Assembly: GCA_964442745.1 (NCBI GenBank)
Contig: CAYUAI010000010.1
Span: forward strand, 3,142 to 67,141
Reading direction: 5' to 3'
DNA from: an uncultured Chromatiales bacterium
GTDB taxonomy: Bacteria; Pseudomonadota; Gammaproteobacteria; S012-40
DNA length: 64,000 nt
Notes under the pieces: model-generated
Seen by the model: the letters and a program-made list of their open reading frames with translations, nothing else
Told to the model about the DNA's origin: nothing
Database searches by the model: none
Shown here: positions 28,441 to 61,577 of the stretch, piece by piece
Position numbering within the stretch: position 1 is the stretch's first letter
Layout: each line of letters opens with the position of its first letter
Translations under genes and position numbers: made by a program

Positions 28441-28512
28441 AAATTCTGATGGTATATCGGTAGCGAATGATTTGGATCAATAAAATAATAGAGTAATTAC
28501 GAGGAGTCAAGC

Positions 28513-43258: not shown

Positions 43259-45262
43259 GTGGGCGGCGACATCTTGCGAGTTGGAACAAGTGGGTTAGCG
43301 GCGTTTAAGAGCGCGCTATCGACAGTTGGCCACAATATTTCCAATGTCAATACCGAGGGATATTCACGTCAGCGTGTTGATCTAGTTAATCGATCAGGGG
43401 CCGCTTCTGGGGCTGGATTTATCGGTGGAGGTGTCTCTGCGACAAATACGCGTCGATTTTATGAAGAAAATGCTGTTTTGCAAGTGCGCAACCGAACGAC
43501 AGCGGTAGAACAGAGTTCGATTTATTACGATTTGGCCTCTCAGGTAGATAATTTAATTGCAGATTCTAAAGCTGGCATTGCTCCATCTTTATCCGATTTT
43601 TTTAATGCCGTACAAGCGGTCGCTGATGATCCTGTTTCTTTGCCGGCGCGTTCGGTGATGCTGTCGGAGGCGAATACCCTGACGGATCGTTTTCAACTAA
43701 TGTACAAATGGGTTGATGATTTACGTAATTCAACCAATGCGCGTTTAGAAAATTTAGTGACAGACATTAATAGTATTGCAGACTCGGTTGCGCAAATGAA
43801 TAAAGATATCAAAATAGCGCTAGGGCAAGGGGGGGGGCGAAATCCCAATGATCTATTGGATCGTCGGGACAATTTAATTAGCCAGTTAGCGGAAAAAGTG
43901 CAGGTCAATACGGTTTCTCAAAGCGATGGTACGGTAAATGTTTTTATCGGTAGTGGTCAAAGCATTGTGCTAGGGGAACAGTCAATGAATTTACAAACTC
44001 GCCCAGACCCCAATGATGCAAATAATTATGAAATTACTTATGCCAACAATGGTGTGGGTAGCATTACTTTTCCGATAACCAATAGTTTGAAAGGGGGTGA
44101 GTTAGGTGGCGTATTGGATGTTCGGAAGAATATCATCGATACCGCGCTAAATCAATTGGGGCGTTTAGCCATCGGTTTAGCCACTAAATTTAATGAAATT
44201 CAGAATCAAGGGATGGACTTAAATGATGATTTGGGCGTTGATTTTTTTAAAATACCTCAACCTGAGGTATTCGCGAATACGAACAATACAGGGCGCGGGG
44301 TATTTTCTGCCACAATTAGCGATATTAGTGTTTTGTCCGCGGCGGATTATCGATTAACACTCCGTAACGCTAGCACTTATAAATTAGAAAATTTGCAAAC
44401 CGGAGCCATCGTGGATTTTAATATTCCAGGGGATGGTCCTCCTTTTAATTTTGATGGGGTGGATATAAATTTAACAGCAGGGACCGTTAATGTGGGTGAT
44501 GTGTTTCAAATTCGCCCGACTCGCAATGGGGCGCGAGATATTGGTGTGCGTATTGACGATGCGACAAGAATTGCGGCGGCATCGCCTATCAGGTCTGAGG
44601 CGAAGATAGCAAACTTGGGCAACGGGAAAGTGAGTATTGCGACGATCAGCGATATTACCAATGCGGTTTTTACCACCACGGCTAAAGCATTATCTCCCCC
44701 TATTATGGTGCAATTTGATAATACGGTGGCTGGCGCACCACTGACCTATACGCTCTATGATAACTCTGTACCTGGCGCACCGGTGGCGATGCCTGGTAAT
44801 ACAAATATAGCGTATGATCCACGTGTTGGTGCCGATATATTTCCTACGGCCGCCGGCCTGGATTATGGGTACCGAGCAAGGCTCACCGCGACACCTCGGC
44901 CGGGAGACCAATTCACCTTTGGTTATAATAGTGCGGGGATTGGTGATAATAATAATATGTTAGCGCTTTCTGAATTGCAGGAGCAGGGGATTTTTTCCAA
45001 TGGCGTCGCGACATTCAATGATACATATAGCCAATTTGTGGTTGATATTGCTCATAAAACAAGAACAGCCGAAATAAATAGAGATGCGCAACAAGCTTTA
45101 TTGAATCAAGCGAAACAATTTCGAGATGCGATTTCAGGGGTTAATCTTGATGAAGAAGCCGCGAATTTAATACAATTCCAGCAAGCTTATGCTGCCGCCG
45201 CTCAGGTAGTATCAGCCTCAGAGCAAATGTTTCAGACACTTATTTCAGCCGTGAGAAGATAA
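43259..45262 (+). CDS. flgK: Flagellar hook-associated protein 1 FlgK
   Basis: The GTG start follows an AGGAG RBS. The N-terminus is LRVGTSGLAAFKSALSTVGHNISNVNTEGYSRQ. The C-terminus is NLDEEAANLIQFQQAYAAAAQVVSASEQMFQTLISAV. Confidence 0.9.
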   Translation: MGGDILRVGTSGLAAFKSALSTVGHNISNVNTEGYSRQRVDLVNRSGAASGAGFIGGGVSATNTRRFYEENAVLQVRNRTTAVEQSSIYYDLASQVDNLIADSKAGIAPSLSDFFNAVQAVADDPVSLPARSVMLSEANTLTDRFQLMYKWVDDLRNSTNARLENLVTDINSIADSVAQMNKDIKIALGQGGGRNPNDLLDRRDNLISQLAEKVQVNTVSQSDGTVNVFIGSGQSIVLGEQSMNLQTRPDPNDANNYEITYANNGVGSITFPITNSLKGGELGGVLDVRKNIIDTALNQLGRLAIGLATKFNEIQNQGMDLNDDLGVDFFKIPQPEVFANTNNTGRGVFSATISDISVLSAADYRLTLRNASTYKLENLQTGAIVDFNIPGDGPPFNFDGVDINLTAGTVNVGDVFQIRPTRNGARDIGVRIDDATRIAAASPIRSEAKIANLGNGKVSIATISDITNAVFTTTAKALSPPIMVQFDNTVAGAPLTYTLYDNSVPGAPVAMPGNTNIAYDPRVGADIFPTAAGLDYGYRARLTATPRPGDQFTFGYNSAGIGDNNNMLALSELQEQGIFSNGVATFNDTYSQFVVDIAHKTRTAEINRDAQQALLNQAKQFRDAISGVNLDEEAANLIQFQQAYAAAAQVVSASEQMFQTLISAVRR

Positions 45263-45272
45263 AGGATAAGGT

Positions 45273-46481
45273 ATGCGCGTATCGACCATCGGGATGGCTC
45301 AGGCGTCACTCAATACGATGCTAACCCAGCAGGCGAACTTGAGTAAAACTCAGCTGCAAATTGCTTCTGGTAATCGAATGTTAGCGCCTGCTGATGATCC
45401 TTATAGCGCAGCGAATGCACTCAATATGGAAGAGAGAATTTCTATTACAGAGCAATATGAAGAAAATGTGATATTGGCTAAAAATCGGCTCAATCTAGAG
45501 GAAGGAATTTTAGCCAATGTTACGCTGGTCGCGCAGCGGCTTAACGAGTTAATCGTACAAGGTAAAAATGATAGTTTGACAAAAGAAAATCGCCAAACCA
45601 TTGCGGCAGAAGTGAATCAAATGCGTGACCAGCTGTTATCCTTGGCAAATACATCGGACAGCAATGGTGAATATCTTTTTGCGGGGTATAAGGGAAGTTC
45701 AAAACCGTTTACGCCCGATGGGGCTGGTAATTTTATTTACGGAGGGGATAGCGGTCAGCGTCGTATTCGAATCGGTCCGGCAACTAGTCTTCCTGTGGGT
45801 GATTCTGGAAATGAAGTATTTAGAGAGATTCGTACGGGTAATGGAACGTTTCGAGCTTCTGAGAATGCCGCTAACACCGGTACTGGGGTGATTTTTTCCA
45901 ATACGGTGGTCGGTACTTACATTCCCGATAATTACAATATTACATTTACCTCCCCCGCTATTGCAGGTAATCCCCCTGATTATACGGTGACAGATAGTGG
46001 CGGTGGAGTGGTTACCTCGGGCACTTATGCGAATGACAGTGCGATTTCATTTAACGGTCATCAAATCACGATAAAGGGCACACCGCAACCAGGGGATCGT
46101 TTTTTAACCGAGCCGAGCCCTAATCAGGATCTGTTTAAAACGGTGCAGGATTTTGCCGATGCCTTAGTGGTGGATACTTCAACGCCAACCGCGAAAGCGA
46201 TGTATCATAATGCGCTAACTCGGGTGAGTGAGAACTTAAATTCGGCCATGGATAATATTTTTGAGATAAGGTCTAAAGTCGGCGCCAGATTAAATAGCAT
46301 TGACAAACAAGAAATGATCAATGAAACCTTTATGCTGCAAATGAAAACCTCATTGTCAGCAATTAAAGATTTGGACTACGCTGAAGCAATCACTACCTTG
46401 AATTTGCAAATGACAGGACTGCAAGCCGCCCAACAATCTTATACAAAAATTCAAAGTTTATCGTTGTTCAACTACCTTTAG
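45273..46481 (+). CDS. flgL: Flagellar hook-associated protein 3 FlgL
   Basis: MRVSTIGMAQASLNTMLTQQANLSKTQLQIASGNRMLAPADDP with a flagellin-like N/C helical architecture. It lies directly after flgK. Confidence 0.85.
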   Translation: MRVSTIGMAQASLNTMLTQQANLSKTQLQIASGNRMLAPADDPYSAANALNMEERISITEQYEENVILAKNRLNLEEGILANVTLVAQRLNELIVQGKNDSLTKENRQTIAAEVNQMRDQLLSLANTSDSNGEYLFAGYKGSSKPFTPDGAGNFIYGGDSGQRRIRIGPATSLPVGDSGNEVFREIRTGNGTFRASENAANTGTGVIFSNTVVGTYIPDNYNITFTSPAIAGNPPDYTVTDSGGGVVTSGTYANDSAISFNGHQITIKGTPQPGDRFLTEPSPNQDLFKTVQDFADALVVDTSTPTAKAMYHNALTRVSENLNSAMDNIFEIRSKVGARLNSIDKQEMINETFMLQMKTSLSAIKDLDYAEAITTLNLQMTGLQAAQQSYTKIQSLSLFNYL

Positions 46482-46657: not shown

Positions 46658-47764
46658 ATGATGACGGATAAACTAGGTATCGATAGCCATAAGCTTATTT
46701 ACCATCCTAAGTATGTCGCACAATTGTTAGAAGTGGATAATGATTGGCAACGCGCCCAAAAAATATTTCCCCTGTATATCGAAATTTCCCCGGTGGGTGC
46801 CTGTAATCATCGCTGCACATTTTGTGCCGTAGATTATATTGGTTATCAAGCGAGAACCTTGGAGGCGGATAGGCTGATTACATGTTTGCACGAGATGGGT
46901 GCGCTCGGGGTAAAAAGCATTATGTATGCGGGTGAAGGTGAACCCCTGTTGCATAAACGGATTGATGAGATTGTTGTGGCCACCAAACAAGCGGGGATTG
47001 ATATCGCTTTTACCACCAACGCGACGGTGGTTAGCGATATTTTTCTTGATCAGGCATTACCCCATATTAGCTGGATAAAAACCTCTATTAACGCTGGCAG
47101 CGCAGATAACTACGCGAAAATTCATGGTACTCAAGCCAAAGATTTTGATCGAGTGATAGCTAATTTAGAAAAATTAGTTCGTCATAAAAAAAAGAGGGAT
47201 TTAGACTGTACACTTGGGGCTCAAATGCTTTTGTTGCCAGAGAATGCTCATGAAATATTCAGTTTGGCACAACTTTGCCGTGATGAAATTGGCCTTGATT
47301 ACTTGGTGATAAAACCGTATTCACAGCATTTATTCAGCCATACCAACCGTTATGAACATTTAGACTATGCTGAATATATGGCATTGGCGGATGATCTTGA
47401 AAGCCGTTCAAATGATCAGTTCAAGGTGATATTTCGTAAAAATAGTATGTTGCGATACAGTGATAAAGGTGATCGTTCTTACCATAAATGCATGGCAACA
47501 CCGCTGGTTTGGGCATACATAATGGCCGATGGTGCGGTATATGGTTGCAGTGCTTTTTTAAAAGATAAAAAATTTGAATATGGAAACATATATGAAAATA
47601 ATTTTTCAGAAATATGGACCGGAGAACAACGCAAAGTTGGGTTTGATTTTGTTAATACAGAACTCAACATTAAGCGCTGCCGAAAAAACTGCCGTATGGA
47701 AGCCGTCAATCAGTATTTGTATGAGTTAACAGAACAGCGGGTTCCGCATAGGAATTTCATCTAA
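46658..47764 (+). CDS. Radical SAM protein with C-terminal Cys-rich (SPASM/twitch-like) region
   Basis: The radical SAM motif is CNHRCTFC with GEGEP. The C-terminal cysteines are CMATP...GCSAF and CRKNCRME. It is a paralogue of the 53005-54402 gene, and both end in ...NFI. Confidence 0.75.
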   Translation: MMTDKLGIDSHKLIYHPKYVAQLLEVDNDWQRAQKIFPLYIEISPVGACNHRCTFCAVDYIGYQARTLEADRLITCLHEMGALGVKSIMYAGEGEPLLHKRIDEIVVATKQAGIDIAFTTNATVVSDIFLDQALPHISWIKTSINAGSADNYAKIHGTQAKDFDRVIANLEKLVRHKKKRDLDCTLGAQMLLLPENAHEIFSLAQLCRDEIGLDYLVIKPYSQHLFSHTNRYEHLDYAEYMALADDLESRSNDQFKVIFRKNSMLRYSDKGDRSYHKCMATPLVWAYIMADGAVYGCSAFLKDKKFEYGNIYENNFSEIWTGEQRKVGFDFVNTELNIKRCRKNCRMEAVNQYLYELTEQRVPHRNFI

Positions 47765-47818: not shown

Positions 47819-48805
47819 ATGCGAGCGTTAGTGACCGGTGGTGCTGGGTTTATTGGTAGTTATATAAGCGAAGCTTTGCTTAGGCAAGGGCATAGCGTTG
47901 TTATCGTCGATGATTTATCGGCGGGTAAGGAAGATAATATTAAGGCCCTCTTGAGGCATGAGCAAGTCGAATTTCATTGCTTGAATATCACGGAAAAAAA
48001 TCATTTAATGGATATTTTTAATGGGATTGATTGGGTTTTTCATCTTGCTGGTAAAGCAGATATTGTCCCCTCTATTGAACAGCCTGAGGTCTACTTCCAA
48101 ACCAATGTGCACGGTACTTTGAATGTTTTGCTTTGTGCAAAAAAAGCCCAAGTCAAAAAATTTGTGTATGCCGCCTCTTCGAGCAGTTATGGGTTACCCG
48201 ATATTTATCCTACGCCAGAAAATTCACCTATCCGACCACAATATCCTTATGCACTAACAAAATATATGGGAGAAGAGCTAGTCATGCATTGGGGCCAAGT
48301 TTATCAACTTCCGGTGATTTCATTACGCTTGTTTAATGTCTATGGTCCGCGTGCTCGGACACATGGGGCTTATGGGGCTGTATTTGGTGTTTTCCTAGCA
48401 CAAAAGTTTAATGGTCATCCTTTCACCGTCGTGGGTGATGGCACCCAAACGCGGGATTTTACCTATGTTACTGATGTTGCCGATGCCTTTATTAAAGCGG
48501 CCCAATCTGATCAGCAAGATGTTGTTATGAATGTTGGAAGCGGTAATCATTATAGCGTTAACAAGATTGTTGAGTTATTAGGTGGGGATGTGACCTATAT
48601 CCCGAAAAGGCCTGGGGAACCTGATTGTACCTTTGCTGATATATCTAGAATCCAATCCTTGCTGGAGTGGCAGCCATCAATTGACCTTGACCTCGGTGTT
48701 GCCAACATGCTTGAACACCGGGATGATTGGGGCAACGCCCCGGTTTGGTCGGCTGACGCCATCGAAGAAGCAACCCAAGTATGGTTTAATCATCTAACTC
48801 GGTAG
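47819..48805 (+). CDS. NAD-dependent sugar epimerase/dehydratase (SDR; GalE/HldD-like)
   Basis: The protein has the motifs [16 protein letters not shown] (YxxxK) and NVYGPR. Confidence 0.8.
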   Translation: MRALVTGGAGFIGSYISEALLRQGHSVVIVDDLSAGKEDNIKALLRHEQVEFHCLNITEKNHLMDIFNGIDWVFHLAGKADIVPSIEQPEVYFQTNVHGTLNVLLCAKKAQVKKFVYAASSSSYGLPDIYPTPENSPIRPQYPYALTKYMGEELVMHWGQVYQLPVISLRLFNVYGPRARTHGAYGAVFGVFLAQKFNGHPFTVVGDGTQTRDFTYVTDVADAFIKAAQSDQQDVVMNVGSGNHYSVNKIVELLGGDVTYIPKRPGEPDCTFADISRIQSLLEWQPSIDLDLGVANMLEHRDDWGNAPVWSADAIEEATQVWFNHLTR

Positions 48806-48812
48806 GTAATCC

Positions 48813-49409
48813 ATGGTTTTAGAGCAAGCACAAGTTAAGCAAGACTATCTCTATCAACAATCTATTGCTTATTTTAGTTCCATTCTTTCAAATACCTTGT
48901 TTACCGACAGTCGTAATGTTTTGTATGAAGCTGAGTATGGTTTTCATTATGGACTGGAACTCTTATCCGAGGTAGATAACAGTGATGGTAATGTCTATGT
49001 GATAGGCAACGGTGGCAGTGCGGCTATTGCTAGCCATATTGTGAATGATTTTTGTAATACTTCTGGCTTACGGGCACATATCTTACATGAACCAGCGCTG
49101 ATGACCTGCTTTGCCAATGACTATGGTTATGAAAACGCATACGCCTCATTATTGTCACGGGTGGCACGGCAGCAAGATTTATTGATTGCAATTAGCAGCT
49201 CGGGTAATTCAATTAATATTCATAACGCTGTTGATACTGCCCGTCAAATTGGATTAAATGTCATTACCTTGAGCGGTTTTTCCGAGGATAATGGGTTGCG
49301 CTGTATAGGGGATCTCAATATTTGGTTGGATGCCAGCCATTACGGTATGGTAGAGGTAGGTCATTTGTTCCTATTGCATCACTTAGCTGATCGTTACTCC
49401 AAAATATGA
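48813..49409 (+). CDS. SIS-domain sugar-phosphate isomerase (GmhA-like sedoheptulose-7-phosphate isomerase)
   Basis: VYVIGNGGSAAIASHIVNDF and AISSSGNSINIH follow the GmhA pattern. Confidence 0.7.
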   Translation: MVLEQAQVKQDYLYQQSIAYFSSILSNTLFTDSRNVLYEAEYGFHYGLELLSEVDNSDGNVYVIGNGGSAAIASHIVNDFCNTSGLRAHILHEPALMTCFANDYGYENAYASLLSRVARQQDLLIAISSSGNSINIHNAVDTARQIGLNVITLSGFSEDNGLRCIGDLNIWLDASHYGMVEVGHLFLLHHLADRYSKI

Positions 49410-49419
49410 CTTTTTCATT

Positions 49420-50937
49420 ATGAATCGAAAAATTTTATCTTTGGATGAACTCATTGCTTTATCTGAGAAGTATCGAGGTCAGGGAGAGAGCGTCGCCTTA
49501 TGTCATGGTACATTTGATTTATTACATATTGGGCATATTCGTCATTTGGCAGCAGCGCGGCGTCAATGTGACCGGTTGTTGATAACGATTACCGCCGACG
49601 CTTACGTCAATAAAGGGCCGGGAAGACCGGTATTCAATGAACAATTGCGTGCCGAACAATTAGCGGCGATTGAATATATTGATGGGATAGCGATTAATTA
49701 TGATACCACTTCGGTTAATGTTATTCATGCCGTCAAGCCCACGCTTTACATCAAAGGGAAAGATTATGAAAATAATCGAGAGGATGTCACCGGCAATATT
49801 CAAAAAGAAAAAAGGGCAGTTGAATCTTGTGGAGGTGATATCGCTTATACGGATGAGATAACATTTAGCTCAAGCAAGTTACTTAATGAGCATTTTGACG
49901 TATTTTCACCGGAGACTAAAGATTACCTCGATAAATTTAAACAACAGCATTCCTGCAAAGAAGTCATTGCCGTCATCGAAACGTTAAAAGATCTGCGTGT
50001 GCTTGTGGTGGGTGATACGATTATTGATGAATATTATTATACTTCTACATTGGGGAAAAGTGGTAAGTATAATGTATTAGCGGCACGTTTTAACAGTAGT
50101 GAGCGCTTTGCGGGTGGAGCGGTTGCAGTGGCCAATCATGTGGCGGGCTTTGTTAATTCGGTGACGCTGTTTACCGGTTTCGGCGCACAAAAAACAGAAG
50201 AAGCATTTGTTCGTTCTAAATTGAAAAGCAATGTTGAAATTTTTTTTATGGAATACCCAGAGGCTACAACCTTAATTAAAAGGCGTTATGTCGATGACAA
50301 CATGATAAAGTTGTTCGAGGTATATTATGGCGGTGAATATTTGCCAGATAGGGTGCTTAACGAATATGCATGCCAATGGTTGCATCATCATCTCGCCGAA
50401 TTTGATGTGGTTGTTGTACCTGATTATGGCAATGGGTTTATCACTGACTCTATGATTCAAGCCTTGTGTCAACAGTCACGTTTTTTAGCGGTGAATACGC
50501 AAATTAATAGCGGCAACCGAGGTTTTCACGTGATTACCCGGTATCCTCACGTTAATTTTGTTTCCCTCAATGAGCCAGAGTTACGCCTTGCTGCACATAG
50601 TCAACGCATGGAACTCACGGGTTTAATGGATACCATATGCCAATTGTTGCAAGCCTCACATATTGCGATCACGCGGGGCACAGAGGGCGTTTTGATGCAA
50701 GATAGAGGATTGCCTATACATCAAACACCAGCCTTGTCCACCCGCGTCGTTGATCGTGTGGGGGCCGGTGATGCATTTTTAGCGATGGCGAGTATTTTAT
50801 TGGGCGGTGGTGTAAAGAGTGATGTGGTTGCGTTTGTGGCGAGCGCCGCAGCGGCCATTGATGTACAAATCGTGTGTAATCGAGACACCATTGAGCCGGT
50901 TAATTTGTATAAATATATTACTACCTTATTAAAATAA
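49420..50937 (+). CDS. Bifunctional HldE-like protein: N-terminal cytidylyl/adenylyltransferase plus C-terminal PfkB-family sugar kinase (reversed domain order)
   Basis: The N-terminus CHGTFDLLHIGHIRHL is the HxGH nucleotidyltransferase motif. The C-terminus has the PfkB signature DRVGAGDAFLA. Confidence 0.7.
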   Translation: MNRKILSLDELIALSEKYRGQGESVALCHGTFDLLHIGHIRHLAAARRQCDRLLITITADAYVNKGPGRPVFNEQLRAEQLAAIEYIDGIAINYDTTSVNVIHAVKPTLYIKGKDYENNREDVTGNIQKEKRAVESCGGDIAYTDEITFSSSKLLNEHFDVFSPETKDYLDKFKQQHSCKEVIAVIETLKDLRVLVVGDTIIDEYYYTSTLGKSGKYNVLAARFNSSERFAGGAVAVANHVAGFVNSVTLFTGFGAQKTEEAFVRSKLKSNVEIFFMEYPEATTLIKRRYVDDNMIKLFEVYYGGEYLPDRVLNEYACQWLHHHLAEFDVVVVPDYGNGFITDSMIQALCQQSRFLAVNTQINSGNRGFHVITRYPHVNFVSLNEPELRLAAHSQRMELTGLMDTICQLLQASHIAITRGTEGVLMQDRGLPIHQTPALSTRVVDRVGAGDAFLAMASILLGGGVKSDVVAFVASAAAAIDVQIVCNRDTIEPVNLYKYITTLLK

Positions 50938-50940: not shown

Positions 50941-51906
50941 ATGTTAGAGCCGTCATTATTGATTGATTTATATCGGAGTATGTTGCGTATTCGTCGGGTT
51001 GAAGAAACCTTGGCGGATCATTATGCGCAACAAGAAATACGTTGTCCAATGCATTTATGTATTGGGCAAGAAGCGATCGCTGCCGGTGTATGTCTCGCGT
51101 TAAATAGCCACGATGTAGTTTTTAGTAATCATCGGGCACATGGTCACTATTTGGCAAAGGGGGGTGATCTGAAGCGGATGATTGCTGAGTTATATGGTAA
51201 ATCTGAGGGTTGTTGTGGCGGTCTGGGAGGCTCGATGCATTTAATTGATAAAGCCGTCGGTTTTCTCGGTTCGACACCGATTGTTGGTGGTACCGTTCCA
51301 TTGGCAGTGGGTGCTGCTTGGTCTTTTCAATTATTGGAAAAGCGGCAAGTCGCGATTGCTTTTTTTGGTGATGGTTGCTTTGAAGAAGGCGTTGTCCATG
51401 AATCACTGAACTTTGCCTCGTTGCACAAGTTACCGGTTATTTTCGTTTGTGAAAACAATCAATATTCCGTGTACACACATATAAAAGATAGACAACCTGA
51501 TCGAAAAATTAGTGACATTGCCAACGCTCATGGTTGGCGAGTATGGCAGGGGGATGGCAATGATGTGGTTGCCAGTTATCAGATGGCAACGCAAGCGGTG
51601 GCCGATGCGAAATCCGCATTGGGTCCACAGTTTATCGAACTGGATACCTATCGATGGCGCGAGCATTGTGGGCCTGATTTTGATGATCACTTGGGGTATC
51701 GGGTAGGATCCGATCTTAGTGATTGGCAGCGACGCTGTCCTATTAAACGCTTATACCAGAGACTGGTTAATAACGACGCTCAGGTAGTGTCGACTCTAGA
51801 ACATCTTGGCAACACGATTATGGAGGAAATCATGGTGGCTTTTGAGTTTGCCAAAAGCTGTCCGATTCCCAGTCCACAACCCATGATACGTCGCGTTTTT
51901 TCCTGA
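50941..51906 (+). CDS. TPP-dependent dehydrogenase E1 component, alpha subunit
   Basis: The TPP-binding region is GDGCFEEGVVHESLNFASLHKLPVIFVCENNQY. It has the 2-oxoacid dehydrogenase E1-alpha fold. Confidence 0.8.
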   Translation: MLEPSLLIDLYRSMLRIRRVEETLADHYAQQEIRCPMHLCIGQEAIAAGVCLALNSHDVVFSNHRAHGHYLAKGGDLKRMIAELYGKSEGCCGGLGGSMHLIDKAVGFLGSTPIVGGTVPLAVGAAWSFQLLEKRQVAIAFFGDGCFEEGVVHESLNFASLHKLPVIFVCENNQYSVYTHIKDRQPDRKISDIANAHGWRVWQGDGNDVVASYQMATQAVADAKSALGPQFIELDTYRWREHCGPDFDDHLGYRVGSDLSDWQRRCPIKRLYQRLVNNDAQVVSTLEHLGNTIMEEIMVAFEFAKSCPIPSPQPMIRRVFS

Positions 51907-51909
51907 TAT

Positions 51910-52980
51910 ATGTCGCTTCGTTCTTTGAGTTATGCACAAGCCATTAATGAAGCATTAGTCTATTGCTTAGCAACTTATTCGAATACGCTATTAATTGGTG
52001 AAGGTGTGCCTGATCCAAAGGGTATTTTTAATACTACGTTAGATTTACCAAAAAAATTTGGTAAACATCGAGTGTTTGATATGCCTTTGGCGGAAAATGG
52101 TATGACCGGTGTGTGCATTGGTGCGGCTTTGGCGGGGCTTCGACCCATTATGGTACATCAGCGAATTGATTTTGCCTTGCTTGCCATGGATCAATTAATT
52201 AATAATGCAGCAAAATGGTTTTTTATGTTTAATGGCCAGTCGTCGGTACCGCTGGTGGTACGGCTTATTATTGGTCGAGGTTGGGGGCAAGGGGCGCAGC
52301 ACTCACAAAGTTTGCAGGCTTTATTTAGTCATGTACCAGGTCTTAAAGTGGTGATGCCGGTTTCTGCTTATGATGCTAAAGGTATGCTGATCAGCGCGAT
52401 TGAAGATGATAATCCAGTGATTTTTATCGAGCATCGTTGGTTGCACAATGGCATGGATCAAGTCCCTGAAAATGACTATCGAGTCCCTTTAGATCAAGCC
52501 AAGATCGTGATTATCGGTACAGATTTTACCATTGTGGCGTTTTCATTAATGGTGGTTGAAGCATTAAAAGTCGCCCGTGTATTGGCACAATACGGTATCA
52601 ATATCGAGGTGATTGATATGCGCTCATGCAATCCGCTTGATATGCCACCCGTCGTTGAATCAGTGAAAAAAACCGGACGAGTGATCGTGACCGATACCGG
52701 TACAGAGACGTGTGGTGTCAGTAGTGAAGTCATTACTCGTATTGTTGAGCAGGCCCATGAGTGGCTGAAATGTTCACCGATCAGACTGGCTGCACCAAAT
52801 CATCCCGTTCCGACGTCACCTTTTTTAGCCGATGGTTATTATATTGATGCGGAGAAAATTGCTCAATGTGTTTTAACTCGAATGGCGTGCGATACCTCTA
52901 TCACTGAGCAAGTCTTGCAAGCACTACGTCGAATTTCACCCAGGGATATTCCAGCCGCAGATTATGTCGGACCTTTTTAA
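51910..52980 (+). CDS. TPP-dependent dehydrogenase E1 component, beta subunit (transketolase-like)
   Basis: There is a pyrimidine-binding domain (FDMPLAENGMTGVCIGAALAGLRPI) and a C-terminal transketolase-C domain. It is translationally adjacent to the alpha subunit. Confidence 0.8.
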   Translation: MSLRSLSYAQAINEALVYCLATYSNTLLIGEGVPDPKGIFNTTLDLPKKFGKHRVFDMPLAENGMTGVCIGAALAGLRPIMVHQRIDFALLAMDQLINNAAKWFFMFNGQSSVPLVVRLIIGRGWGQGAQHSQSLQALFSHVPGLKVVMPVSAYDAKGMLISAIEDDNPVIFIEHRWLHNGMDQVPENDYRVPLDQAKIVIIGTDFTIVAFSLMVVEALKVARVLAQYGINIEVIDMRSCNPLDMPPVVESVKKTGRVIVTDTGTETCGVSSEVITRIVEQAHEWLKCSPIRLAAPNHPVPTSPFLADGYYIDAEKIAQCVLTRMACDTSITEQVLQALRRISPRDIPAADYVGPF

Positions 52981-53004: not shown

Positions 53005-54402
53005 ATGGAAAATCATAAAAACTCGGTCAATCGCTTCGGCAAAAACACTACCACGGCGATACCAGATAATATACCGTTAGCCAAGCAACCTGGTCATAAA
53101 TTGCGTAGCTCCAATACCATTGTTGATCGTTCCGCTTTACCCGTACATTCATTGGCAATGACTCGCAATGTAGGGCAAGAAAAAACAAGTGATGCTCAGA
53201 CGATTGAATTAGTCCAGTTTGAAAACCAGTTCGGTTTAATTAGAAGGAAATCGGATGATCGATGTGATCGACCGATACCAAATATGTTTAGTGGACCATC
53301 AAATCGAAATCAACAACAACGTTTTCGATTTGATGGTCACAAAATGCTGCATCATCTAGATCACGTGCTTGCTTGGCAAAAAGGAGGAAAAATCGCCCCG
53401 ATTCACATTGATATGGGTTTGACAAAATATTGTAATACTGCCTGCCTGTATTGTTATGCGGTAGTGCAGAATATGACAAAAGGGAAAATGATTGGCTGTC
53501 AGGCATTGTTAAATTTCATTGAAGACTGTGGGCGTTTAGGCGTTCGATCTTTAGGTTTTATTGGTGATGGTGAACCCACCTTAAATCCGGCACTTTATGA
53601 GGCAACAGTGTTGGCGGCGAGTCATGGCATTGATACCGCAATGGCCACTAATGGTTTGTTATTGGATATGGATCGAGCACATGATGTATTGGCGAATATG
53701 TCCTGGATAAGATTTAACCTGTCTGCAGGTAGTGCGACGGGGTTTCAGAAAGTCCATCAATCAAAAGCTAAAAACTTTGATTTGCTCATTGAAAAAATTC
53801 GTAATTTAGTTCAACTGAAAAAACAATATGGTTATCAATGTACCATTGGTTTGCAAATGGTATTGATTCCAGAGTGCTTTGATGAAGTCATTGCCGAGGC
53901 CAAACTTGGCCAGGAATTAGGCGTGGATTATTTTGTGATTAAACATTGTTCCGATTCAGAATACAAAGAAATCGGTGTGAATTATGATGATTATAAGCGG
54001 GTCGCCGAGAAACTGAAATGTGCGGAAAGCTATTCCAATGATGAATATGTCGTGCAAGTGAAGTGGAATAAAATTAACGCCAATGGTGAAACTGATTTGT
54101 ATAAAAATGGTTATCGAAAATACGATGTTTGCATGGGAACGCCTTTTTTACTGCAAATTTCTGGCAATGGTAAAATCTATCCGTGCGGTCCATTTTTTAA
54201 TAAAGAGCGATTTTACATGGGTGACTTGCACGAGCATGCTTTTTATGACTTAGTGAATAGTGATCATTATTGGGCAGTACACCAAGATATCGCAAACAGT
54301 GTCGATGTGCATAAAGATTGTGCCATTGGCTGTCGGCAAGATTACATCAATAAATTTCTTTGGGATTTAAAAAATCCACCTGAACATGTGAATTTTATTT
54401 AG
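53005..54402 (+). CDS. Radical SAM protein with a ~100 aa N-terminal extension; paralogue of the 46658 gene
   Basis: The radical SAM motif is CNTACLYC with GDGEP. The C-terminus CMGTP...YPCGPF...CAIGC...NFI aligns with the paralogue. The RBS is aaaggaacaatacATG. Confidence 0.7.
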   Translation: MENHKNSVNRFGKNTTTAIPDNIPLAKQPGHKLRSSNTIVDRSALPVHSLAMTRNVGQEKTSDAQTIELVQFENQFGLIRRKSDDRCDRPIPNMFSGPSNRNQQQRFRFDGHKMLHHLDHVLAWQKGGKIAPIHIDMGLTKYCNTACLYCYAVVQNMTKGKMIGCQALLNFIEDCGRLGVRSLGFIGDGEPTLNPALYEATVLAASHGIDTAMATNGLLLDMDRAHDVLANMSWIRFNLSAGSATGFQKVHQSKAKNFDLLIEKIRNLVQLKKQYGYQCTIGLQMVLIPECFDEVIAEAKLGQELGVDYFVIKHCSDSEYKEIGVNYDDYKRVAEKLKCAESYSNDEYVVQVKWNKINANGETDLYKNGYRKYDVCMGTPFLLQISGNGKIYPCGPFFNKERFYMGDLHEHAFYDLVNSDHYWAVHQDIANSVDVHKDCAIGCRQDYINKFLWDLKNPPEHVNFI

Positions 54403-54409: not shown

Positions 54410-56194
54410 TTACTCAATTAACAATGTTTCTACTTGGTTGATAATATTTTTGGCAAATTTTTTATAGGTGGAATATTGCGCAATATTGGAAGCGAGTTTT
54501 TTTGGTTTTTTACTGAGTGCATTTTGCAAAGAATTAAATGAATTAAAATATAAACATTCATCTTCCCAGTAGGGTGGCTCCGCAAAATGCCTGCAATCGA
54601 AAACTAAAGGCGTCGCACCACAGGCTGCGACTTCACTTAATCTTTGGGAATTAATTTCAAAAGGATGTACCACAAGTGCATATTTGGCACTGTTATATAT
54701 TTTGGCGAGGGCTGATCCATGGGCGATCGAACCCTTGAAAAATTCTGAGACAATGGGGTCGTCGTCCCATCCATAACCATATATCTCAACCGGAAATGTG
54801 TTGTTTTGACAAATCCATTGAACGGCTTTTCTACGAATGGAATAATGATATAACTTCCAAAAAATTATCTCGAATGGGATATCGAATTTCGTGGCCGCCT
54901 GATTGATAATGTCATGTGTTATCGTGATTTCTGCATCTAAAAAATGATTGAAATATGAAATAACCTCAAGCGTGTGATTACTACTTTTGTGTTTGATAAA
55001 ACCCTGGTAAGAGGCGCCAACAAAAACAATTTTTTCTTCTTTGTGAATTTCCGGATAAGCCTTAAATATCGTAGCATCGATACAAAACTGTTGGCGATGT
55101 ATGTTGGGTGAATCACAAGTCTCAAGGTATTTATCTAAGGTGGGAGAGATTGAATAAATTATATCCCGTTTTCGCCAATGAAATGGTTTTTGTTCAAGTA
55201 ATTGTGGCATAGGGTCTTGCCACCAAATCACATTAAAGACATCCTCGTGTAGATAATTATTATTTTGGTGATTTATGTTAATGGTGATATGAGGATTAAA
55301 GTCATAACGTAATTTTTGATGCCATATGCCATTGCTAAGGTCTTCCATATCGCTTTGTTCAATGGAAAATTCAACTTGATGGCCTAAGTTCTGGAAGGCC
55401 TTAGCTAAGTATCTTGCTGCATACTGCATAACAAGGGTTTGTCTGTTTGCGATTAAGTACACTCGATACGGCTGTATATTTTTAAAAATTGGTTGCAGTG
55501 TGGTAAGTTCCCTGTTGAGGTGCTCTCTGATTTTAATTTGTTGTTTAATCATAGTGCTTAGTAGTTCATGATAGGTTTTGGTGATCTCGTTTTTTTCTTG
55601 TTCCGTTGTCTCAGGTTCGGGAGAAAACTCTAGCCGATAGGGTATACGAAGTCGTGTATTCATAAAAAAATCATAAATTTTTTCGGTGGGCACACAGATT
55701 AAATTCGCGGGAGCATCATGAAAGGGTTCGCCATTGTGATAACAAATTTGTAAGCCATCAATGTTGGGGTGCTCTAACTTTACTCGGTTTTTATTGAGTG
55801 CAGTGGCATAAGCGAGATCTCGATCAAGAAAATAAGTGTCTTGATGCAGCGAGGTGAAATCTTCGTTGTCTTGAATATGATGATGCAATTGATCGAGCAA
55901 GTCTTTAAAGGTGTTTTCTATTTCCTGAATTTTGTCTTTCTCAATGGAGATCCCTTTCTTAATCGAGCAAAAATGTTTGGGGATTCTCGTTGGGTGGGAC
56001 AAAAAATATTCAGAAAACTGACTGATTGGCACATGAATTAAATTGGTTGGCGCCTGGTGTAGAGGTTCACCATCGTAGTAACAGTTTTTAATAATTGATT
56101 GGCCTGACTGAAGCTTAATTTTTTCGCCTTTTGAGGCGGTTTTTTGAGCGATGTCTCTATCAATAAAATATACGTCATCAGTAAACATAGTCAT
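54410..56194 (-). CDS. Putative glycosyltransferase (CgeB/DUF3880-like C-terminal domain) with an internally duplicated N-terminal domain
   Basis: The ATG is at 56194. Two ~100 aa tandem N-terminal repeats are present: VYFIDRDIAQKTA...YYDGEPLHQAPTNLIHVP and TYFLDRDLAYATA...YHNGEPFHDAPANLICVP. The C-terminal ~200 aa resemble CgeB-type GT1-like domains. Confidence 0.55.
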   Translation of the reverse strand: MTMFTDDVYFIDRDIAQKTASKGEKIKLQSGQSIIKNCYYDGEPLHQAPTNLIHVPISQFSEYFLSHPTRIPKHFCSIKKGISIEKDKIQEIENTFKDLLDQLHHHIQDNEDFTSLHQDTYFLDRDLAYATALNKNRVKLEHPNIDGLQICYHNGEPFHDAPANLICVPTEKIYDFFMNTRLRIPYRLEFSPEPETTEQEKNEITKTYHELLSTMIKQQIKIREHLNRELTTLQPIFKNIQPYRVYLIANRQTLVMQYAARYLAKAFQNLGHQVEFSIEQSDMEDLSNGIWHQKLRYDFNPHITININHQNNNYLHEDVFNVIWWQDPMPQLLEQKPFHWRKRDIIYSISPTLDKYLETCDSPNIHRQQFCIDATIFKAYPEIHKEEKIVFVGASYQGFIKHKSSNHTLEVISYFNHFLDAEITITHDIINQAATKFDIPFEIIFWKLYHYSIRRKAVQWICQNNTFPVEIYGYGWDDDPIVSEFFKGSIAHGSALAKIYNSAKYALVVHPFEINSQRLSEVAACGATPLVFDCRHFAEPPYWEDECLYFNSFNSLQNALSKKPKKLASNIAQYSTYKKFAKNIINQVETLLIE

Positions 56195-56346: not shown

Positions 56347-57630
56347 ATGAAAATTACTCAGAATCATCAAATCATGCAACAGCGATGGCCTAGTTTATTG
56401 GATAAATTAACGAGGTCAAATGAAAAACTGGATATACAGGTGCTGTATCACAACAATGAAAAAACGTTGCTGGTTAATGGTATTCACTTAAGTAGTATTT
56501 ATGATAAAAATAAAGAAGCACAATTGCAGGCAAGCCTAGTGCCGTGCGAAAAATCTCAGGTATTTGTTTATGGCGTAGGTTTAGGTGATATACCACGTGT
56601 ATTGTTAAAAAGAAAGGCACTGATTGAGTTGGTGTGTGTTGTTTTAAACAAGTCGATTTTCTACCAAGTGATTATGGAATTTGATTGTTCAAATTGGTTG
56701 CAAGATGAACGAGTACGTTTGCTCTTTGCTAATGAGGAAACTCAACTTCAATATCCATTTTCGACCCAGCCTGCCTGTTTGAAGTTAGCTAATGAAGCAG
56801 TCTATCATTTGCGTGATCAAATTTTATTGGAGTTGTCAACGCCACATATCCAACAGAAATTTAGTGAAAAAAAAGTTATTTACCAGCAGCAAATTGAAGA
56901 AAATATTTTTTATATTAAAAATGATGGCGATGTGAGTAGCTTTTTTAATCGCTATCCTGGACAGGCTGCACTCATTGTTGGGGCAGGTCCAAGTTTATTA
57001 GATAATTATGACTGGATACGAGAAAATCGTGATAATTATTTTATAATTTCGGTCAGTTCAGCTGTGATTCCGCTAATGGCAGAAAATATAATTCCAGATG
57101 CAGTGGTTGTTATTGAGCCACAAGAAGACGCAATATTTCCCGTATTCGATATTGATTTGACATTGCTTAGCAAAGTACCTTTAGTTTACTTTCCTATCGT
57201 TTCAAAGCGAGTGTTAGCGTTGTGGAAAGGTAAACGTTTTACGGCATATGGTCAGCACAAAATTTATGAGAAAATGGCAGTTCAATATCCTAAAGGATAT
57301 TTGTTTGCTGCTGGTACAGTGGTGCACTCCGCGATTGATTTAGCCGTTAAAATGGGCGTAAGGAAAATTGTATTGGCCGGAGTGGATTATGCTTTTTCAA
57401 ATGAACTGCAACATGCTACGGGTGCTCGTTCAAGAAATATTCTGGTGCCAGAGACAGGTGAGTATGTGGTTTTTAATGGCTATAATGAAAAGATTCAATC
57501 GTCGCCGAGCTTAATTGGTTTTTTACGTGATACTGAACATTATATTGCTTGTCATCCACAGGTTGAGTTTTACAATATGAGTCGATCAGGTGCTAAAATT
57601 AAAGGCGCAACTTATTTAGATGGTGCTTAG
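56347..57630 (+). CDS. maf: Motility accessory factor (Maf; DUF115/MptE-like) flagellin glycosyltransferase family
   Basis: ALIVGAGPSLLDNYDWIRENRDNYFIISVSSAV...PDAVVVIEPQ is the DUF115 core. Confidence 0.8.
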   Translation: MKITQNHQIMQQRWPSLLDKLTRSNEKLDIQVLYHNNEKTLLVNGIHLSSIYDKNKEAQLQASLVPCEKSQVFVYGVGLGDIPRVLLKRKALIELVCVVLNKSIFYQVIMEFDCSNWLQDERVRLLFANEETQLQYPFSTQPACLKLANEAVYHLRDQILLELSTPHIQQKFSEKKVIYQQQIEENIFYIKNDGDVSSFFNRYPGQAALIVGAGPSLLDNYDWIRENRDNYFIISVSSAVIPLMAENIIPDAVVVIEPQEDAIFPVFDIDLTLLSKVPLVYFPIVSKRVLALWKGKRFTAYGQHKIYEKMAVQYPKGYLFAAGTVVHSAIDLAVKMGVRKIVLAGVDYAFSNELQHATGARSRNILVPETGEYVVFNGYNEKIQSSPSLIGFLRDTEHYIACHPQVEFYNMSRSGAKIKGATYLDGA

Positions 57631-57900
57631 ATGACAAATAGGATTTCATTGAAAATACAGCGTACCAGCAACGCCTTTCGATTAGGTATGGAAAGCAAAG
57701 GTGGCCAATTGTTTTCTGAGCTCATTGATGAACTTCTAGAGGTAATATCAAGTTCAGCATCGGATGAACTATTGGGGAAATTCAATAGACTTTTACAGCA
57801 AATGATAGAAGCACAATTGAAAGCAGATTTTTTGTATTTAGCCGATTTAATTGAATATGAGTTAACTGATGCTTTGCGTGAAATAGATAAACGAAATTAA
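57631..57900 (+). CDS. Small hypothetical protein (89 aa)
   Basis: An ORF abutting the maf stop (ATG overlapping TAG). It is helical and acidic. I recognise no family. Confidence 0.35.
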   Translation: MTNRISLKIQRTSNAFRLGMESKGGQLFSELIDELLEVISSSASDELLGKFNRLLQQMIEAQLKADFLYLADLIEYELTDALREIDKRN

Positions 57901-57930
57901 TTTTATGTAGTCATTTGAGGTTTAAAAATT

Positions 57931-58101: not shown

Positions 58102-58127
58102 CCCAGTTTTTCTGCCTGGAGGTTTTC

Positions 58128-59165
58128 ATGAGTGTCTTAGAAAATAAACAGCCGCCTATCGGTATGGCGCTGGTGGATAATATGCTGAATTTGACTAGCG
58201 AACGCACCACTGGGCAAGGACTGGATAATGCGGAACGAAATCAGCAGTTTTTACACCATGGGCAATCATTGGTCGCGTTGAGGAATCAATCTTTAGCCGA
58301 AGGAAATCAATGTATTGTGATTGCGGCAGGGCCTAGCATCAAACGACAAGACCCCTTGTCAATACTGAAAAAAACAGATTATAACGGCGCTATCATTGTG
58401 ACAGATAGTGCATTGTTCTATTGTTTACGAAACAAAATTATTCCAGACCTGGTGGTTACTTTGGACCCCCATGCGAAAAGAATTGTACGCTGGTTTGGAG
58501 ATCCTAATTTAACCAAAAAGGATATTATCGCCGATGACTATTTCCGTCGTCAGGATATGGATGAGGCCTTTGCTAATGAATGGCAAGTTAATGAAGAAAT
58601 ATTGACGTTGTTAGATAAATATGGCAAAGACATCAAGATTGCATTATCCACTTCAGCCTCCAGTGCTGTGGTGAATCGAGCCATTGATAGTGAGATGCAA
58701 ATTTATTGGTGGAATCCGATGTATGATGATCCCGAGCAGGAAAATAGTGTGACGGGGGGATTGTATCAACGGAATAAACTACCTTGTGTTAACGCCGGTG
58801 GCAATGTCGGGACAGCGTGTTGGATGATGGCGCATGCGGTTCACAATAAAAAACAGGTGGCAATAACGGGCATGGACTTTGGTTATTATGACGATACCCC
58901 TTATGAAAAGACGCAGTATTACAAAGAAGCTGTGGCCTTATTTGGTCAGGAGCAATTGGAAAATTATTTTGTCCGTGTCTTTAATCCGCATGAGAATCGA
59001 TGGTTTTACACCGACCCGGCTTATATGTGGTATCGAGAGTGCTTGTTCGATTTATTACCTGAGGCGGATTGTATGACATATAATTGTACTGAAGGTGGGA
59101 TTGTGTTTGGAGAGAATATTGATTATCTACCCTTGCATAAATTTTTAACCTGTGGTGTAACATAG
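58128..59165 (+). CDS. DUF115/MptE-like (Maf-related) protein
   Basis: CIVIAAGPSIKRQDPLSIL...IIVTDSALFYCLRNKIIPDLVVTLDPH is a DUF115 core. Confidence 0.7.
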   Translation: MSVLENKQPPIGMALVDNMLNLTSERTTGQGLDNAERNQQFLHHGQSLVALRNQSLAEGNQCIVIAAGPSIKRQDPLSILKKTDYNGAIIVTDSALFYCLRNKIIPDLVVTLDPHAKRIVRWFGDPNLTKKDIIADDYFRRQDMDEAFANEWQVNEEILTLLDKYGKDIKIALSTSASSAVVNRAIDSEMQIYWWNPMYDDPEQENSVTGGLYQRNKLPCVNAGGNVGTACWMMAHAVHNKKQVAITGMDFGYYDDTPYEKTQYYKEAVALFGQEQLENYFVRVFNPHENRWFYTDPAYMWYRECLFDLLPEADCMTYNCTEGGIVFGENIDYLPLHKFLTCGVT

Positions 59166-59182
59166 TAATCAAGAAAAATTCC

Positions 59183-60769: not shown

Positions 60770-60791
60770 GAATCCATGGAAGGAGGGTGAG

Positions 60792-61547
60792 ATGAACCAT
60801 CCCAGTGTATTGATCGTGGTACCGGCACGCAGTGGCTCTAAGGGCTTACCTAGGAAAAATACCAAACAGCTCGGGGATTTGCCATTGCTGGCATGGACGG
60901 CTGAAGCCATCAAACGAGCTAGCCTAATAAATTGTACGGCGCTATTGAGTACGGATAATGAGGAAATCGCTAGAATCGGTCAAGTGGCTGGGTTGTCCGT
61001 GCCTTTTTTTCGGCCAAACGAACTGGCTCAAGATAACTCAAGTGTGGTTGATGTCGCGTTACATGCGCTGTCATGGCAGTGTCATTGGCAAGCGTTACCG
61101 GATGTTATTATGTTGTTGCAACCGACTTCACCCTTTCGAAATCCGGAAACCATTCGTCAAGCATTATCGCTATTGTATGAAAAAAAAGTGGATGCAGTGA
61201 TTGGTGTTAAAGCTATTTTTCGATCCTTGCAAACGATTTTTTATGCCGATGCCCAAGGTAAGTTATCTGCCCTCAATGCCGAATCAGAAAAATTGGCGAC
61301 CCGCCGTCAAGACGTTGAGCCGTTATTGACTCCCAATGGTGCCATGTATTTGGTTAAAACCGAAGTGTTGCAACAACAAAAGACATTTTTTCCCGCAAGT
61401 ATCTATGGTTTAAAAATGGATGAAATTAGCAGTCATGATATTGACATCCCCGATGATTGGTTGATTGCGGAGGCATTTTATTCAGCACAAAAAACCTGGC
61501 GGCACGACCTTAAATTCAAAAATATAGTGTCAGCACAGAATTTTTAA
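60792..61547 (+). CDS. Acylneuraminate cytidylyltransferase family (CMP-nonulosonic/CMP-Kdo-type sugar activating enzyme)
   Basis: VLIVVPARSGSKGLPRKN is the CTP_transf_3 signature. The RBS is aggagggtgagATG. The ORF track start at 60753 is upstream. Confidence 0.8.
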   Translation: MNHPSVLIVVPARSGSKGLPRKNTKQLGDLPLLAWTAEAIKRASLINCTALLSTDNEEIARIGQVAGLSVPFFRPNELAQDNSSVVDVALHALSWQCHWQALPDVIMLLQPTSPFRNPETIRQALSLLYEKKVDAVIGVKAIFRSLQTIFYADAQGKLSALNAESEKLATRRQDVEPLLTPNGAMYLVKTEVLQQQKTFFPASIYGLKMDEISSHDIDIPDDWLIAEAFYSAQKTWRHDLKFKNIVSAQNF

Positions 61548-61577
61548 TATGAGTTGAATTCAAATGATCCTGGTACG

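Follow-up and report, generated by a model that had tools for sequence, protein, structure and literature searches.

An E1 alpha/beta pair in a flagellar glycosylation island is probably a sugar-branching carboligase

A seven-gene cassette next to flgL

This work concerns a pair of adjacent genes in 64,000 nucleotides of DNA from an uncultured Chromatiales bacterium (contig CAYUAI010000010.1, positions 3,142 to 67,141), a stretch that we call the window. The first gene (50941..51906, + strand) starts with ATG and encodes an E1 alpha protein of 321 residues, the subunit with the thiamine diphosphate (ThDP)-binding PP domain (PF00676 E1_dh, 5.1e-62). The second (51910..52980, + strand) also starts with ATG and encodes an E1 beta protein of 356 residues that combines the Pyr domain (PF02779 Transket_pyr, 1.9e-31) with a C-terminal domain (PF02780 Transketolase_C, 1.7e-27) and ends ...DYVGPF. 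Just 3 bp separate E1 alpha from the gene upstream of it, and another 3 bp separate it from E1 beta. An initial annotation of this DNA had described an E1 alpha/beta pair embedded in a sugar-biosynthesis operon at 50941-52980, and this is what we find: the reading frames lie exactly there, they carry the E1_dh and Transket domains, and their neighbours are sugar-nucleotide genes.

The pair belongs to a cassette of seven genes on the same strand, with intergenic gaps of 3-54 bp, which directly follows flgL. The cassette opens with a radical S-adenosylmethionine (SAM)/SPASM enzyme of 368 residues, rSAM1 (46658..47764, +; Radical_SAM 8.1e-18, SPASM 4.4e-08). It has a CNHRCTFC motif at residue 49, its closest solved structure is DesII, a weak match at 30 bits, and it is 57-63% identical among the loci that carry the cassette. 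Next comes an extended short-chain dehydrogenase/reductase (SDR) of 328 residues (47819..48805, +; Epimerase 1.9e-61) with SSSSYG...YALTK motifs. It resembles GalE and 4-epimerases in general; its top NCBIfam match is GalE at 189 bits, below the cut-off of that model, and its top PDB matches are UDP-glucose 4-epimerases, Pal and WbgU/WbpP. The third gene (48813..49409, +) encodes a GmhA-like phosphosugar isomerase of 198 residues with an SIS domain (SIS_2 4.5e-14), which scores 78.6 bits against the TIGR00441 gmhA cut-off of 209. The fourth (49420..50937, +) encodes a bifunctional nucleotidyltransferase and PfkB kinase of 505 residues, similar to HldE with its domain order swapped: a CTP_transf_like (cytidylyltransferase-like) domain occupies residues 28-135 and PfkB residues 193-481. 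The HldE, rfaE_dom_I and rfaE_dom_II models all match this fusion below their cut-offs (HldE at 165.6 against 521), and its PDB match is the heptose 7-phosphate kinase HldA (4e84, 4.2e-15). Set against the pathway to ADP-heptose (ADP, adenosine diphosphate), the homology to GmhA and HldE is clear yet below the cut-offs, the HldE domains are transposed and GmhB is missing.

After the E1 pair the cassette closes with a second radical SAM/SPASM enzyme, rSAM2 (53005..54402, +; 465 residues; Radical_SAM 1.4e-12, SPASM 3.7e-05). It is a paralogue of rSAM1 (31% identity over 371 residues) with a CNTACLYC motif and a 125-residue N-terminal extension, and it is 65-71% identical in the related loci L013-L017, L030, L034 and L044. 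A scan for promoters and terminators gave no enrichment over shuffled sequences, so the operon structure is taken from gene spacing alone.

In one cassette type found elsewhere, an additional gene separates E1 beta from the second radical SAM gene. It encodes a small conserved protein of about 112-125 residues with no Pfam match (L007:12077-12454, L010:12089-12427 and 8 other loci), with the pattern ...DGQVIVRL...RGTLLLDLE..LK..D.GL.VWLEPLGDRNSLRNLRGIEVK, and it is absent from the window. A link to the N-terminal extension of rSAM2 was rejected, as the two are not homologous.

The pair and the missing E2 and E3

By name, the best NCBIfam and PDB matches of the pair are the alpha and beta subunits of pyruvate dehydrogenase (PDH) E1. 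Among solved structures, E1 alpha comes closest to human PDH E1 alpha (163 bits) and E1 beta to Geobacillus PDH E1 beta (222 bits), and the ThDP motif and catalytic histidines of the pair align with them. In E1 alpha the residues GDG143-145...NN172-173 and H242 are invariant across the subfamily; in E1 beta the conserved E62 and H131 align with the reference residues, and the sequence GRGWGQG is present. On these alignments the ThDP-binding and catalytic residues of the pair are intact. In E1 heterotetramers the active site lies at the interface between the subunits.

One could argue from these names, and from the retained alpha and beta histidines of reductive acylation, that the pair is the E1 component of a genuine pyruvate, acetoin or 2-oxoacid dehydrogenase which sits in this island by chance while its E2 and E3 are encoded elsewhere. 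We consider this extremely improbable. Both subunits score below the curated NCBI cut-offs for PDH equivalogs: E1 alpha reaches 296.8 bits against 393.85 for PDH_E1_alph_y, and E1 beta reaches 283.8 against 321 for PRK09212 and 284.5 against 454 for a further beta model. The pair lies 3 bp from its sugar-gene neighbours, and the order of the seven genes is conserved across phyla. AcoA/AcoB and PdhA/PdhB do share the fold, the ThDP motif and the catalytic His and Glu with the pair, at identities of 31-42% for alpha and 37-43% for beta. Unlike it, they are encoded with E2 and Lpd, they lack the C-terminal tail of the beta subunit described below, and their alpha motifs differ.

The absence of E2 and E3, which the initial annotation had also claimed, holds up in two kinds of search. 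A Pfam run on the larger open reading frames (ORFs) of the window finds no lipoyl, 2-oxoacid_dh or pyridine-nucleotide-disulfide oxidoreductase protein among the sizeable ORFs of its 64 kb. From the annotated complexes of three loci (Rhizobium L095, Enterococcus L099, Acinetobacter L101) we took three E2 and three Lpd proteins as tblastn queries against the window and all of the fetched loci, about 90 relatives searched within 10 kb. The positive controls work, since these queries detect each other's loci and, in the RenH and Leisingera systems, the E2-like genes. They give zero matches in the window or in any of the roughly 90 E1-family loci within 10 kb, the rest of the genome being outside the search. 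The initial annotation had said that its view would fall if the proteins clustered tightly with true acetoin or pyruvate dehydrogenases and matching E2/E3 genes lay nearby; tblastn finds no such genes, and the tree to which we now turn separates the pair from the E1s that are linked to E2/E3.

Phylogeny and the beta tail

The initial annotation had called for a phylogeny of the pair against AviB1/AviB2 and the acetoin and pyruvate dehydrogenases, and we ran one with homologues of AviB1/AviB2. We used neighbour joining on 35 E1 alpha sequences and 200 bootstrap replicates; the AviB1/B2, AlmDI/DII and KbDH sequences themselves are not among the 35. A single clade, with 76% bootstrap, contains the window protein, all members from glycan loci and an actinomycete group that includes TxnB3. 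Every E1 alpha with an adjacent E2/E3 falls outside this clade, as do the fused RenH and Leisingera enzymes and human PDHA1. A plasmid search turned up a 53% homologue of the window E1 alpha on Streptomyces griseofuscus pSGRIFU1. Used as a query, this Streptomyces alpha retrieved TxnB3 of Streptomyces bottropensis, which aligns with the window E1 alpha over 312 residues at 49% identity (E 3e-104). Pau12, retrieved with a Streptomyces beta query, is 45% identical to the window E1 beta.

The clade can be recognized by motifs as well. Its alpha subunits share HRxH[GA]xYLA and GGSxHL[IV]D, and they have GDGxxEEG where classical E1s have GDGxxNxG, and YRWREH[CV]GP where classical E1s have YRxxGH[SF]xxD. 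Its beta subunits share GRGWGQG..HSQ and an extension of about 30 residues that places D-[VIT]-P-x3-F-x-G-P-F at the very C-terminus (52870-52980 in the window). Of 79 family members, natural alpha-beta fusions included, 74 carry this tail, and 117 of 120 actinomycete relatives carry it as F-x-G-P-[YF]. Pau12 is one of these (...FQGPF), so that the window E1 beta and Pau12 have the tail in common. It is absent from all four reference E1 beta proteins, three of which are linked to E2/E3. The signature was derived in this analysis and is not a published criterion; we propose it as a practical marker of the clade, one that should make such loci simple to find. As a guess, the tail might fill the funnel through which the lipoyl arm enters classical E1s.

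Single-chain fusions of E1 alpha to E1 beta, 686-711 residues long, occur within the same clade in Woesearchaeota and Planctomycetales (L040:9983-12076, L082:9902-12037, L084:9959-12019). All three retain the terminal ...F-x-G-P-F.

Distribution and gene neighbourhoods

A protein search returned thousands of relatives, of which we examined the best 120. Apart from the query's own sequence and one relative at 87%, these are 59-64% identical and come from Nitrospira, Nitrosomonadaceae, Omnitrophota and others. The order of the seven genes recurs in the 87%-identical flagellar island (L005), in a Nitrosomonadaceae metagenome-assembled genome beside GT2 genes and a Wzm/Wzt transporter, and in a Nitrospira metagenome-assembled genome beside glycosyltransferases and nonulosonate genes. 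Elsewhere the cassette lies mostly in glycan loci that are not flagellar. A plasmid search also found it, at 50.6% identity, on a plasmid of Azospirillum oryzae. Scanning one genome per GTDB species for the subfamily motifs NHRAHGHY and GGSMHLID, and counting confirmed relatives, we find the E1 in the genomes of at least 584 species, which represent archaea and many bacterial phyla. The matches listed include Proteobacteria, Nitrospirota, Nitrospinota, Cyanobacteria (Prochlorococcus among them), Planctomycetota, Verrucomicrobiota, Chlamydiota, Actinomycetota, Woesearchaeota and Methanosarcinales.

For the 80 best loci we counted the neighbours up to 10 kb from E1 alpha. E1 beta is adjacent to E1 alpha in 76 of the 80, an SDR is present in 69, the kinase/nucleotidyltransferase fusion in 52, an SIS protein in 39 and a radical SAM/SPASM enzyme in 34. 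Less frequent are class-I methyltransferases (22/80), DegT aminotransferases (21/80), zinc-dependent alcohol dehydrogenases (17/80), GT2 (14/80), RmlA-like nucleotidyltransferases (10/80), TylC3-like C-methyltransferases (9/80) and ThDP enzymes of the YerE or acetolactate synthase kind (8/80). FkbM methyltransferases and RmlD-like reductases recur too, along with GmhB-like HAD phosphatases in 7 loci and GT9 heptosyltransferase-like genes in 4. This is a repertoire for tailoring nucleoside diphosphate (NDP)-ketosugars, with repeated hints of a heptose substrate. The gene after E1 beta is a reductase or an aminotransferase in relatives (an adh_short reductase lies directly 3' of E1 beta in L078 and L087), and in the window cassette it is a radical SAM/SPASM enzyme.

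The neighbourhoods bear on a different account of the pair, in which it acts upstream in the manner of transketolase or DXP synthase. It would lengthen an aldose phosphate by two carbons, with pyruvate, hydroxypyruvate or a ketose as the donor, and the resulting longer ketose phosphate would then be activated by the SIS isomerase and the kinase/nucleotidyltransferase. E1 alpha does give weak matches to Transketolase_N and DXP_synthase_N, and E1 beta matches transketolase and Dxs models. The SIS protein and the kinase fusion co-occur with E1 alpha/beta in about half of the loci, and the cassette has no dehydratase-type enzyme to supply a keto acceptor. Nevertheless we regard such chain extension as unlikely. 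The clade includes TxnB3 and Pau12, which act on deoxythymidine diphosphate (dTDP)-ketosugars, and many family loci without the SIS protein and the kinase fusion keep an SDR, E1 alpha/beta and a reductase or aminotransferase. There is also a chemical objection, in that a 1-deoxy-ketose made from pyruvate could not be isomerized to an aldose by an SIS enzyme.

Known sugar-branching enzymes

Deletion of txnB4 from the trioxacarcin cluster removes the C2-branched octose, and the pyruvate-derived two-carbon chain goes to C-4'' of a dTDP-sugar (PMC5659172). For AviB1/AviB2 of avilamycin and Pau11/Pau12 of paulomycin, the proposed role is to attach a pyruvate-derived acetyl branch at C-4, and Pau12 is a homologue of AviB2 (PMC4753412). 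A 2025 review groups enzymes of this kind as alphaKADH2 and counts about 120 gene clusters, in which branching at C3 or C4 is followed by reduction, methylation, oxidation or transamination (PMC12247030). According to the same review, KbDH-alpha/beta of kibdelomycin takes pyruvate as its sole donor in vitro and converts ketones, sugar analogues included, to tertiary alpha-hydroxyketones. It assigns the branched sugars of lipopolysaccharide to the YerE type and those of secondary metabolites to alphaKADH2.

We believe that the window pair is probably a member of this alphaKADH2 group (AviB1/B2, TxnB3/B4, Pau11/12, KstD7/8, KbDH-alpha/beta), that is, an alpha2beta2-type ThDP-dependent carboligase that branches sugars. 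Separate and adjacent genes for E1 alpha and E1 beta are a feature of alphaKADH2-type enzymes, and the window pair has it. TxnB3/TxnB4 of trioxacarcin and KstD7/KstD8 of kosinostatin resemble the pair further in lacking E2 and E3 and in being encoded among NDP-sugar genes. Their setting is different: they work on dTDP-2,6-dideoxy-4-ketohexoses supplied by RmlA/RmlB-type enzymes in actinomycete antibiotic clusters, whereas the window pair has GmhA-like, HldE-like and GalE-like partners plus two radical SAM/SPASM enzymes in a Gram-negative flagellar glycosylation island. The pathways of Pau11/Pau12 and AviB1/AviB2 differ in that a dedicated ketoreductase (Pau7) goes on to reduce the acetyl branch, and the window cassette has none. 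KbDH-alpha/beta is of the same enzyme class as the pair; a Kibdelosporangium homologue (P0160) falls in the actinomycete sub-clade, although it is not established as KbDH.

YerE, ErwE and MMAR_2332 are like the reaction that we propose, in that a ThDP-bound acyl anion meets an NDP-4-ketosugar for a Gram-negative surface glycan and the branch is then reduced. They are unlike the pair itself, being single-chain proteins similar to acetolactate synthase from an unrelated fold family (PF02775/PF00205/PF02776, not E1_dh). Membership of the YerE type was considered and rejected; the window proteins are of the E1_dh and Transket_pyr types, not single-chain TPP_enzyme_N/M/C, although a YerE-like action is possible.

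Several observations weigh against a sugar-branching carboligase. The biochemical and glycan-structure data for the enzyme group come from actinomycete members only. Support for the clade is moderate, at 76% by neighbour joining only and with neither the AviB1/B2 nor the KbDH sequences in the tree. The gene content of the cassette includes no GmhB phosphatase, branch reductase or aminotransferase, and its SDR is GalE-like and not a 4,6-dehydratase of the kind that supplies the acceptor in antibiotic pathways. Finally, there is a homologue on the Streptomyces griseofuscus plasmid pSGRIFU1 (L093:11986-24825), 48-53% identical to the window alpha and with an identical alpha in S. rochei. That pair adjoins genes for a 1103-residue condensation-domain protein, an acyl carrier protein (ACP), a phosphopantetheinyl transferase, a thioesterase and a ketosynthase, not sugar genes, so the clade may not be exclusively sugar-directed.

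The kind of enzyme is already known. Its presence in a flagellin-glycosylation island appears undescribed in the literature that we searched, as do its wide occurrence in Gram-negative and archaeal surface-glycan loci and its association with heptose-activation genes and a radical SAM/SPASM pair. The initial annotation had called the enzymology unusual for flagellin glycosylation; the same literature holds no precedent for E1/ThDP enzymes in flagellin-glycosylation islands. A parallel with E1-like genes in the Legionella lipopolysaccharide locus was considered and dropped when a literature search returned nothing. Two-component E1-type sugar branching has so far been tied to actinomycete antibiotics, and here its enzymes are found in surface-glycan loci of at least 584 species. 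If our reading is right, C-acetyl- or C-hydroxyethyl-branched sugars, possibly heptose-derived, would be much commoner on microbial surfaces than structural chemistry has recorded.

A proposed pathway

By homology to the studied members, the pair would decarboxylate pyruvate on ThDP to give hydroxyethylidene-ThDP. The hydroxyethylidene carbanion would then attack the keto group of a nucleotide-activated sugar in place of lipoyl-E2, and the product would be a tertiary alcohol with a C-acetyl branch. Domain homology and gene order suggest that a ketose phosphate is the starting material, which the SIS isomerase and the kinase/nucleotidyltransferase fusion would turn into a sugar of the NDP-heptose type. 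We think that the acceptor is probably heptose-derived because the operon has GmhA-like and HldE-like enzymes, the latter with homology to HldA, and because relatives carry GmhB-like HAD and GT9 genes. The initial annotation missed this pointer from the partner genes to a heptose-type acceptor.

The keto group itself could come from oxidation at C-4 by the SDR, from dehydrogenation by a radical SAM enzyme (the weak match to DesII would fit here) or from the LegB product of the neighbouring pathway. The cassette SDR is like GalE and 4-epimerases and not like RmlB. The radical SAM/SPASM enzyme encoded after E1 beta, in the slot that relatives fill with a ketoreductase, may process the product further, and the acetyl branch may be kept or modified by radical chemistry. 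The branched sugar would then be used by the glycosyltransferase-like protein or the Maf proteins described below, together with legionaminic acid, to decorate flagellin.

The initial annotation had predicted a hydroxyethyl- or acetyl-branched sugar in the flagellar glycan. Two-carbon branching is the part of this prediction that our results support, through TxnB3 (49%), Pau12 (45%) and the clade. A hydroxyethyl branch now seems less likely than an acetyl or further processed one because the cassette has no branch reductase where relatives have one; the product and its flagellar destination are what we infer from homology and position.

The two radical SAM/SPASM partners point to further sugar chemistry, and since neither has an assigned role one may ask whether the pair runs in the opposite direction. 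It would then act as the acetoin dehydrogenase E1 does on acetoin, removing or rearranging a two-carbon acyloin fragment from a keto-sugar that a radical SAM enzyme may have made. ThDP acyloin chemistry is reversible, and Ao:DCPIP oxidoreductase, a member of the same superfamily, cleaves acetoin (PMC12247030). We nonetheless hold cleavage to be highly unlikely. Sugar pathways offer no precedent for it, every relative studied genetically or biochemically forms the branch, and the reductases and aminotransferases that directly follow E1 beta in relatives fit the modification of a newly installed acetyl.

Returning to a branch-forming carboligase, its chemistry could be carried one step further. 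The seven genes might together make a hitherto undescribed nine-carbon sugar, with an NDP-heptose receiving the pyruvate-derived acetyl branch and one or both of the radical SAM/SPASM enzymes remodelling it, for instance by closing a carbocycle from the branch carbonyl to C7 to give a caryose-like 4,8-cyclo-nonose. We put this forward as a doubtful extension. The biosynthesis of caryose is reported as unknown (PMC9092360), and caryophyllose-type branches are assigned in the literature to YerE-like enzymes with long keto-acid donors. Were the idea true, the pathway would be widespread in bacteria and archaea and would here decorate flagellin. Bradyrhizose was considered as a product and set aside; its genes are loosely defined, and the literature on them mentions no transketolase, E1 or radical SAM enzyme.

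Flagellar and nonulosonate surroundings

The genes upstream of the cassette are flgG, flgH, flgI, a rod-binding (FlgJ-like) gene, flgK and flgL. The last two, for the hook-filament junction (43259..46481, +; Flg_bb_rod, FlgK_D1, Flagellin_N), lie immediately before rSAM1. Convergent with the cassette on its other side is a gene for a glycosyltransferase-like protein of 594 residues (54410..56194, -), with Glyco_trans_1_2 (3.9e-10) at residues 455-573. Ahead of that domain the protein has an N-terminal internal duplication, at about residues 5-75 and 110-180, each copy with YF[IL]DRD...GEP[LF]H.AP.NLI.VP. Its conservation is limited to this island and the 87%-related one.

Beyond it lies a putative flagellin glycosyltransferase of the Maf (motility accessory factor) type (56347..57630, +; MptE-like 7.2e-39) and a second Maf-like protein (58128..59165, +; MptE-like 2.1e-16). 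Two tiny ORFs separate them, one of 89 residues with DUF8042 (57631-57900) and one of 56 residues. A B12-binding radical SAM enzyme of 528 residues follows (59183..60769, +; B12-binding and Radical_SAM domains), which has weak NCBIfam matches to HpnJ and to C-methyltransferases of ribosomally synthesized and post-translationally modified peptides. Then come a PseF/LegF-like cytidine monophosphate (CMP)-nonulosonate synthetase (60792..61547, +; TIGR03584 PseF 2.4e-40, below cut-off) and a large Maf and TPR protein (61578..64000, -; FlagModPseD 3.2e-10, MptE-like), which has 824 residues in the full contig and is cut by the end of the window. The longer contig continues with PtmE-like, PglD-like, NeuB, NeuC-like, DegT and LegB-like genes and then another Maf. 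The legionaminic-acid gene set downstream is complete, and we therefore assign the CMP-nonulosonate synthetase of the window to it rather than to the E1 cassette. In all, four Maf-type genes (427, 345, 824 and 833 residues) surround the complete legionaminic-acid pathway (56347-64000 and L091:2215-12184).

A flagellin destination for the branched sugar is suggested by the position of the cassette next to flgL and the Maf genes. Independent flagellar links come from Colwellia sp. (L075), which has a Maf gene, and from Magnetococcus (L043), where a FlgK-like match is the weaker of the two. Flagellin-glycosylation islands with this E1 type are found in two lineages or more, and a third lineage has a weaker link to flagella.

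The legionaminic-acid pathway allows one more explanation, namely that the pair produces an activated two-carbon unit, acetyl or glycolyl, to acylate legionaminic acid or a carrier protein in the manner of QncN, NapB or RenH, with no carbon-carbon bond made to a sugar. The complete pathway and the Maf genes do flank the cassette, about 7 of the 80 loci have nonulosonate genes no more than 10 kb from E1 alpha/beta, and the Streptomyces plasmid homologue has condensation-domain and ACP genes as neighbours. We judge this quite unlikely all the same, since neither an E2-like acyltransferase nor an ACP occurs in the window or the family loci, and since the fused RenH and Leisingera E1s, which are partnered with E2-like and ACP proteins, fall outside the clade. 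Most cassette loci, moreover, have no nonulosonate genes nearby.

Other features of the window

The remaining Pfam content of the window includes FIST, PKD-multihaem cytochromes, PtsP, NUDIX, HAD, M23, GuaB and GuaA, together with a cytidine-deaminase-family protein, a histidine kinase, RibD, a 4,6-dehydratase-like SDR, an extracytoplasmic function sigma factor and a radical SAM/methyltransferase pair.

The 4,6-dehydratase-type SDR (24928-26007, -; GDP_Man_Dehyd 3.2e-93) stands by itself, apart from other sugar genes and at a distance of 21 kb upstream from the glycan island; in principle it could supply a 4-keto-6-deoxy sugar. At 27478-30685 (+) a radical SAM protein with DUF3641 is followed by a SAM methyltransferase of 374 residues and then by a DUF2064 protein, and the first two presumably resemble the ArsS/ArsM arsenosugar pair. 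Near the start of the window, two large proteins encoded in tandem (2676-4877 and 5119-7671, +) combine PKD/Ig domains with many CXXCH haem motifs (MtrC/MtrF-like; cytochrome c7/c3-like), which suggests extracellular electron transfer in the host organism.

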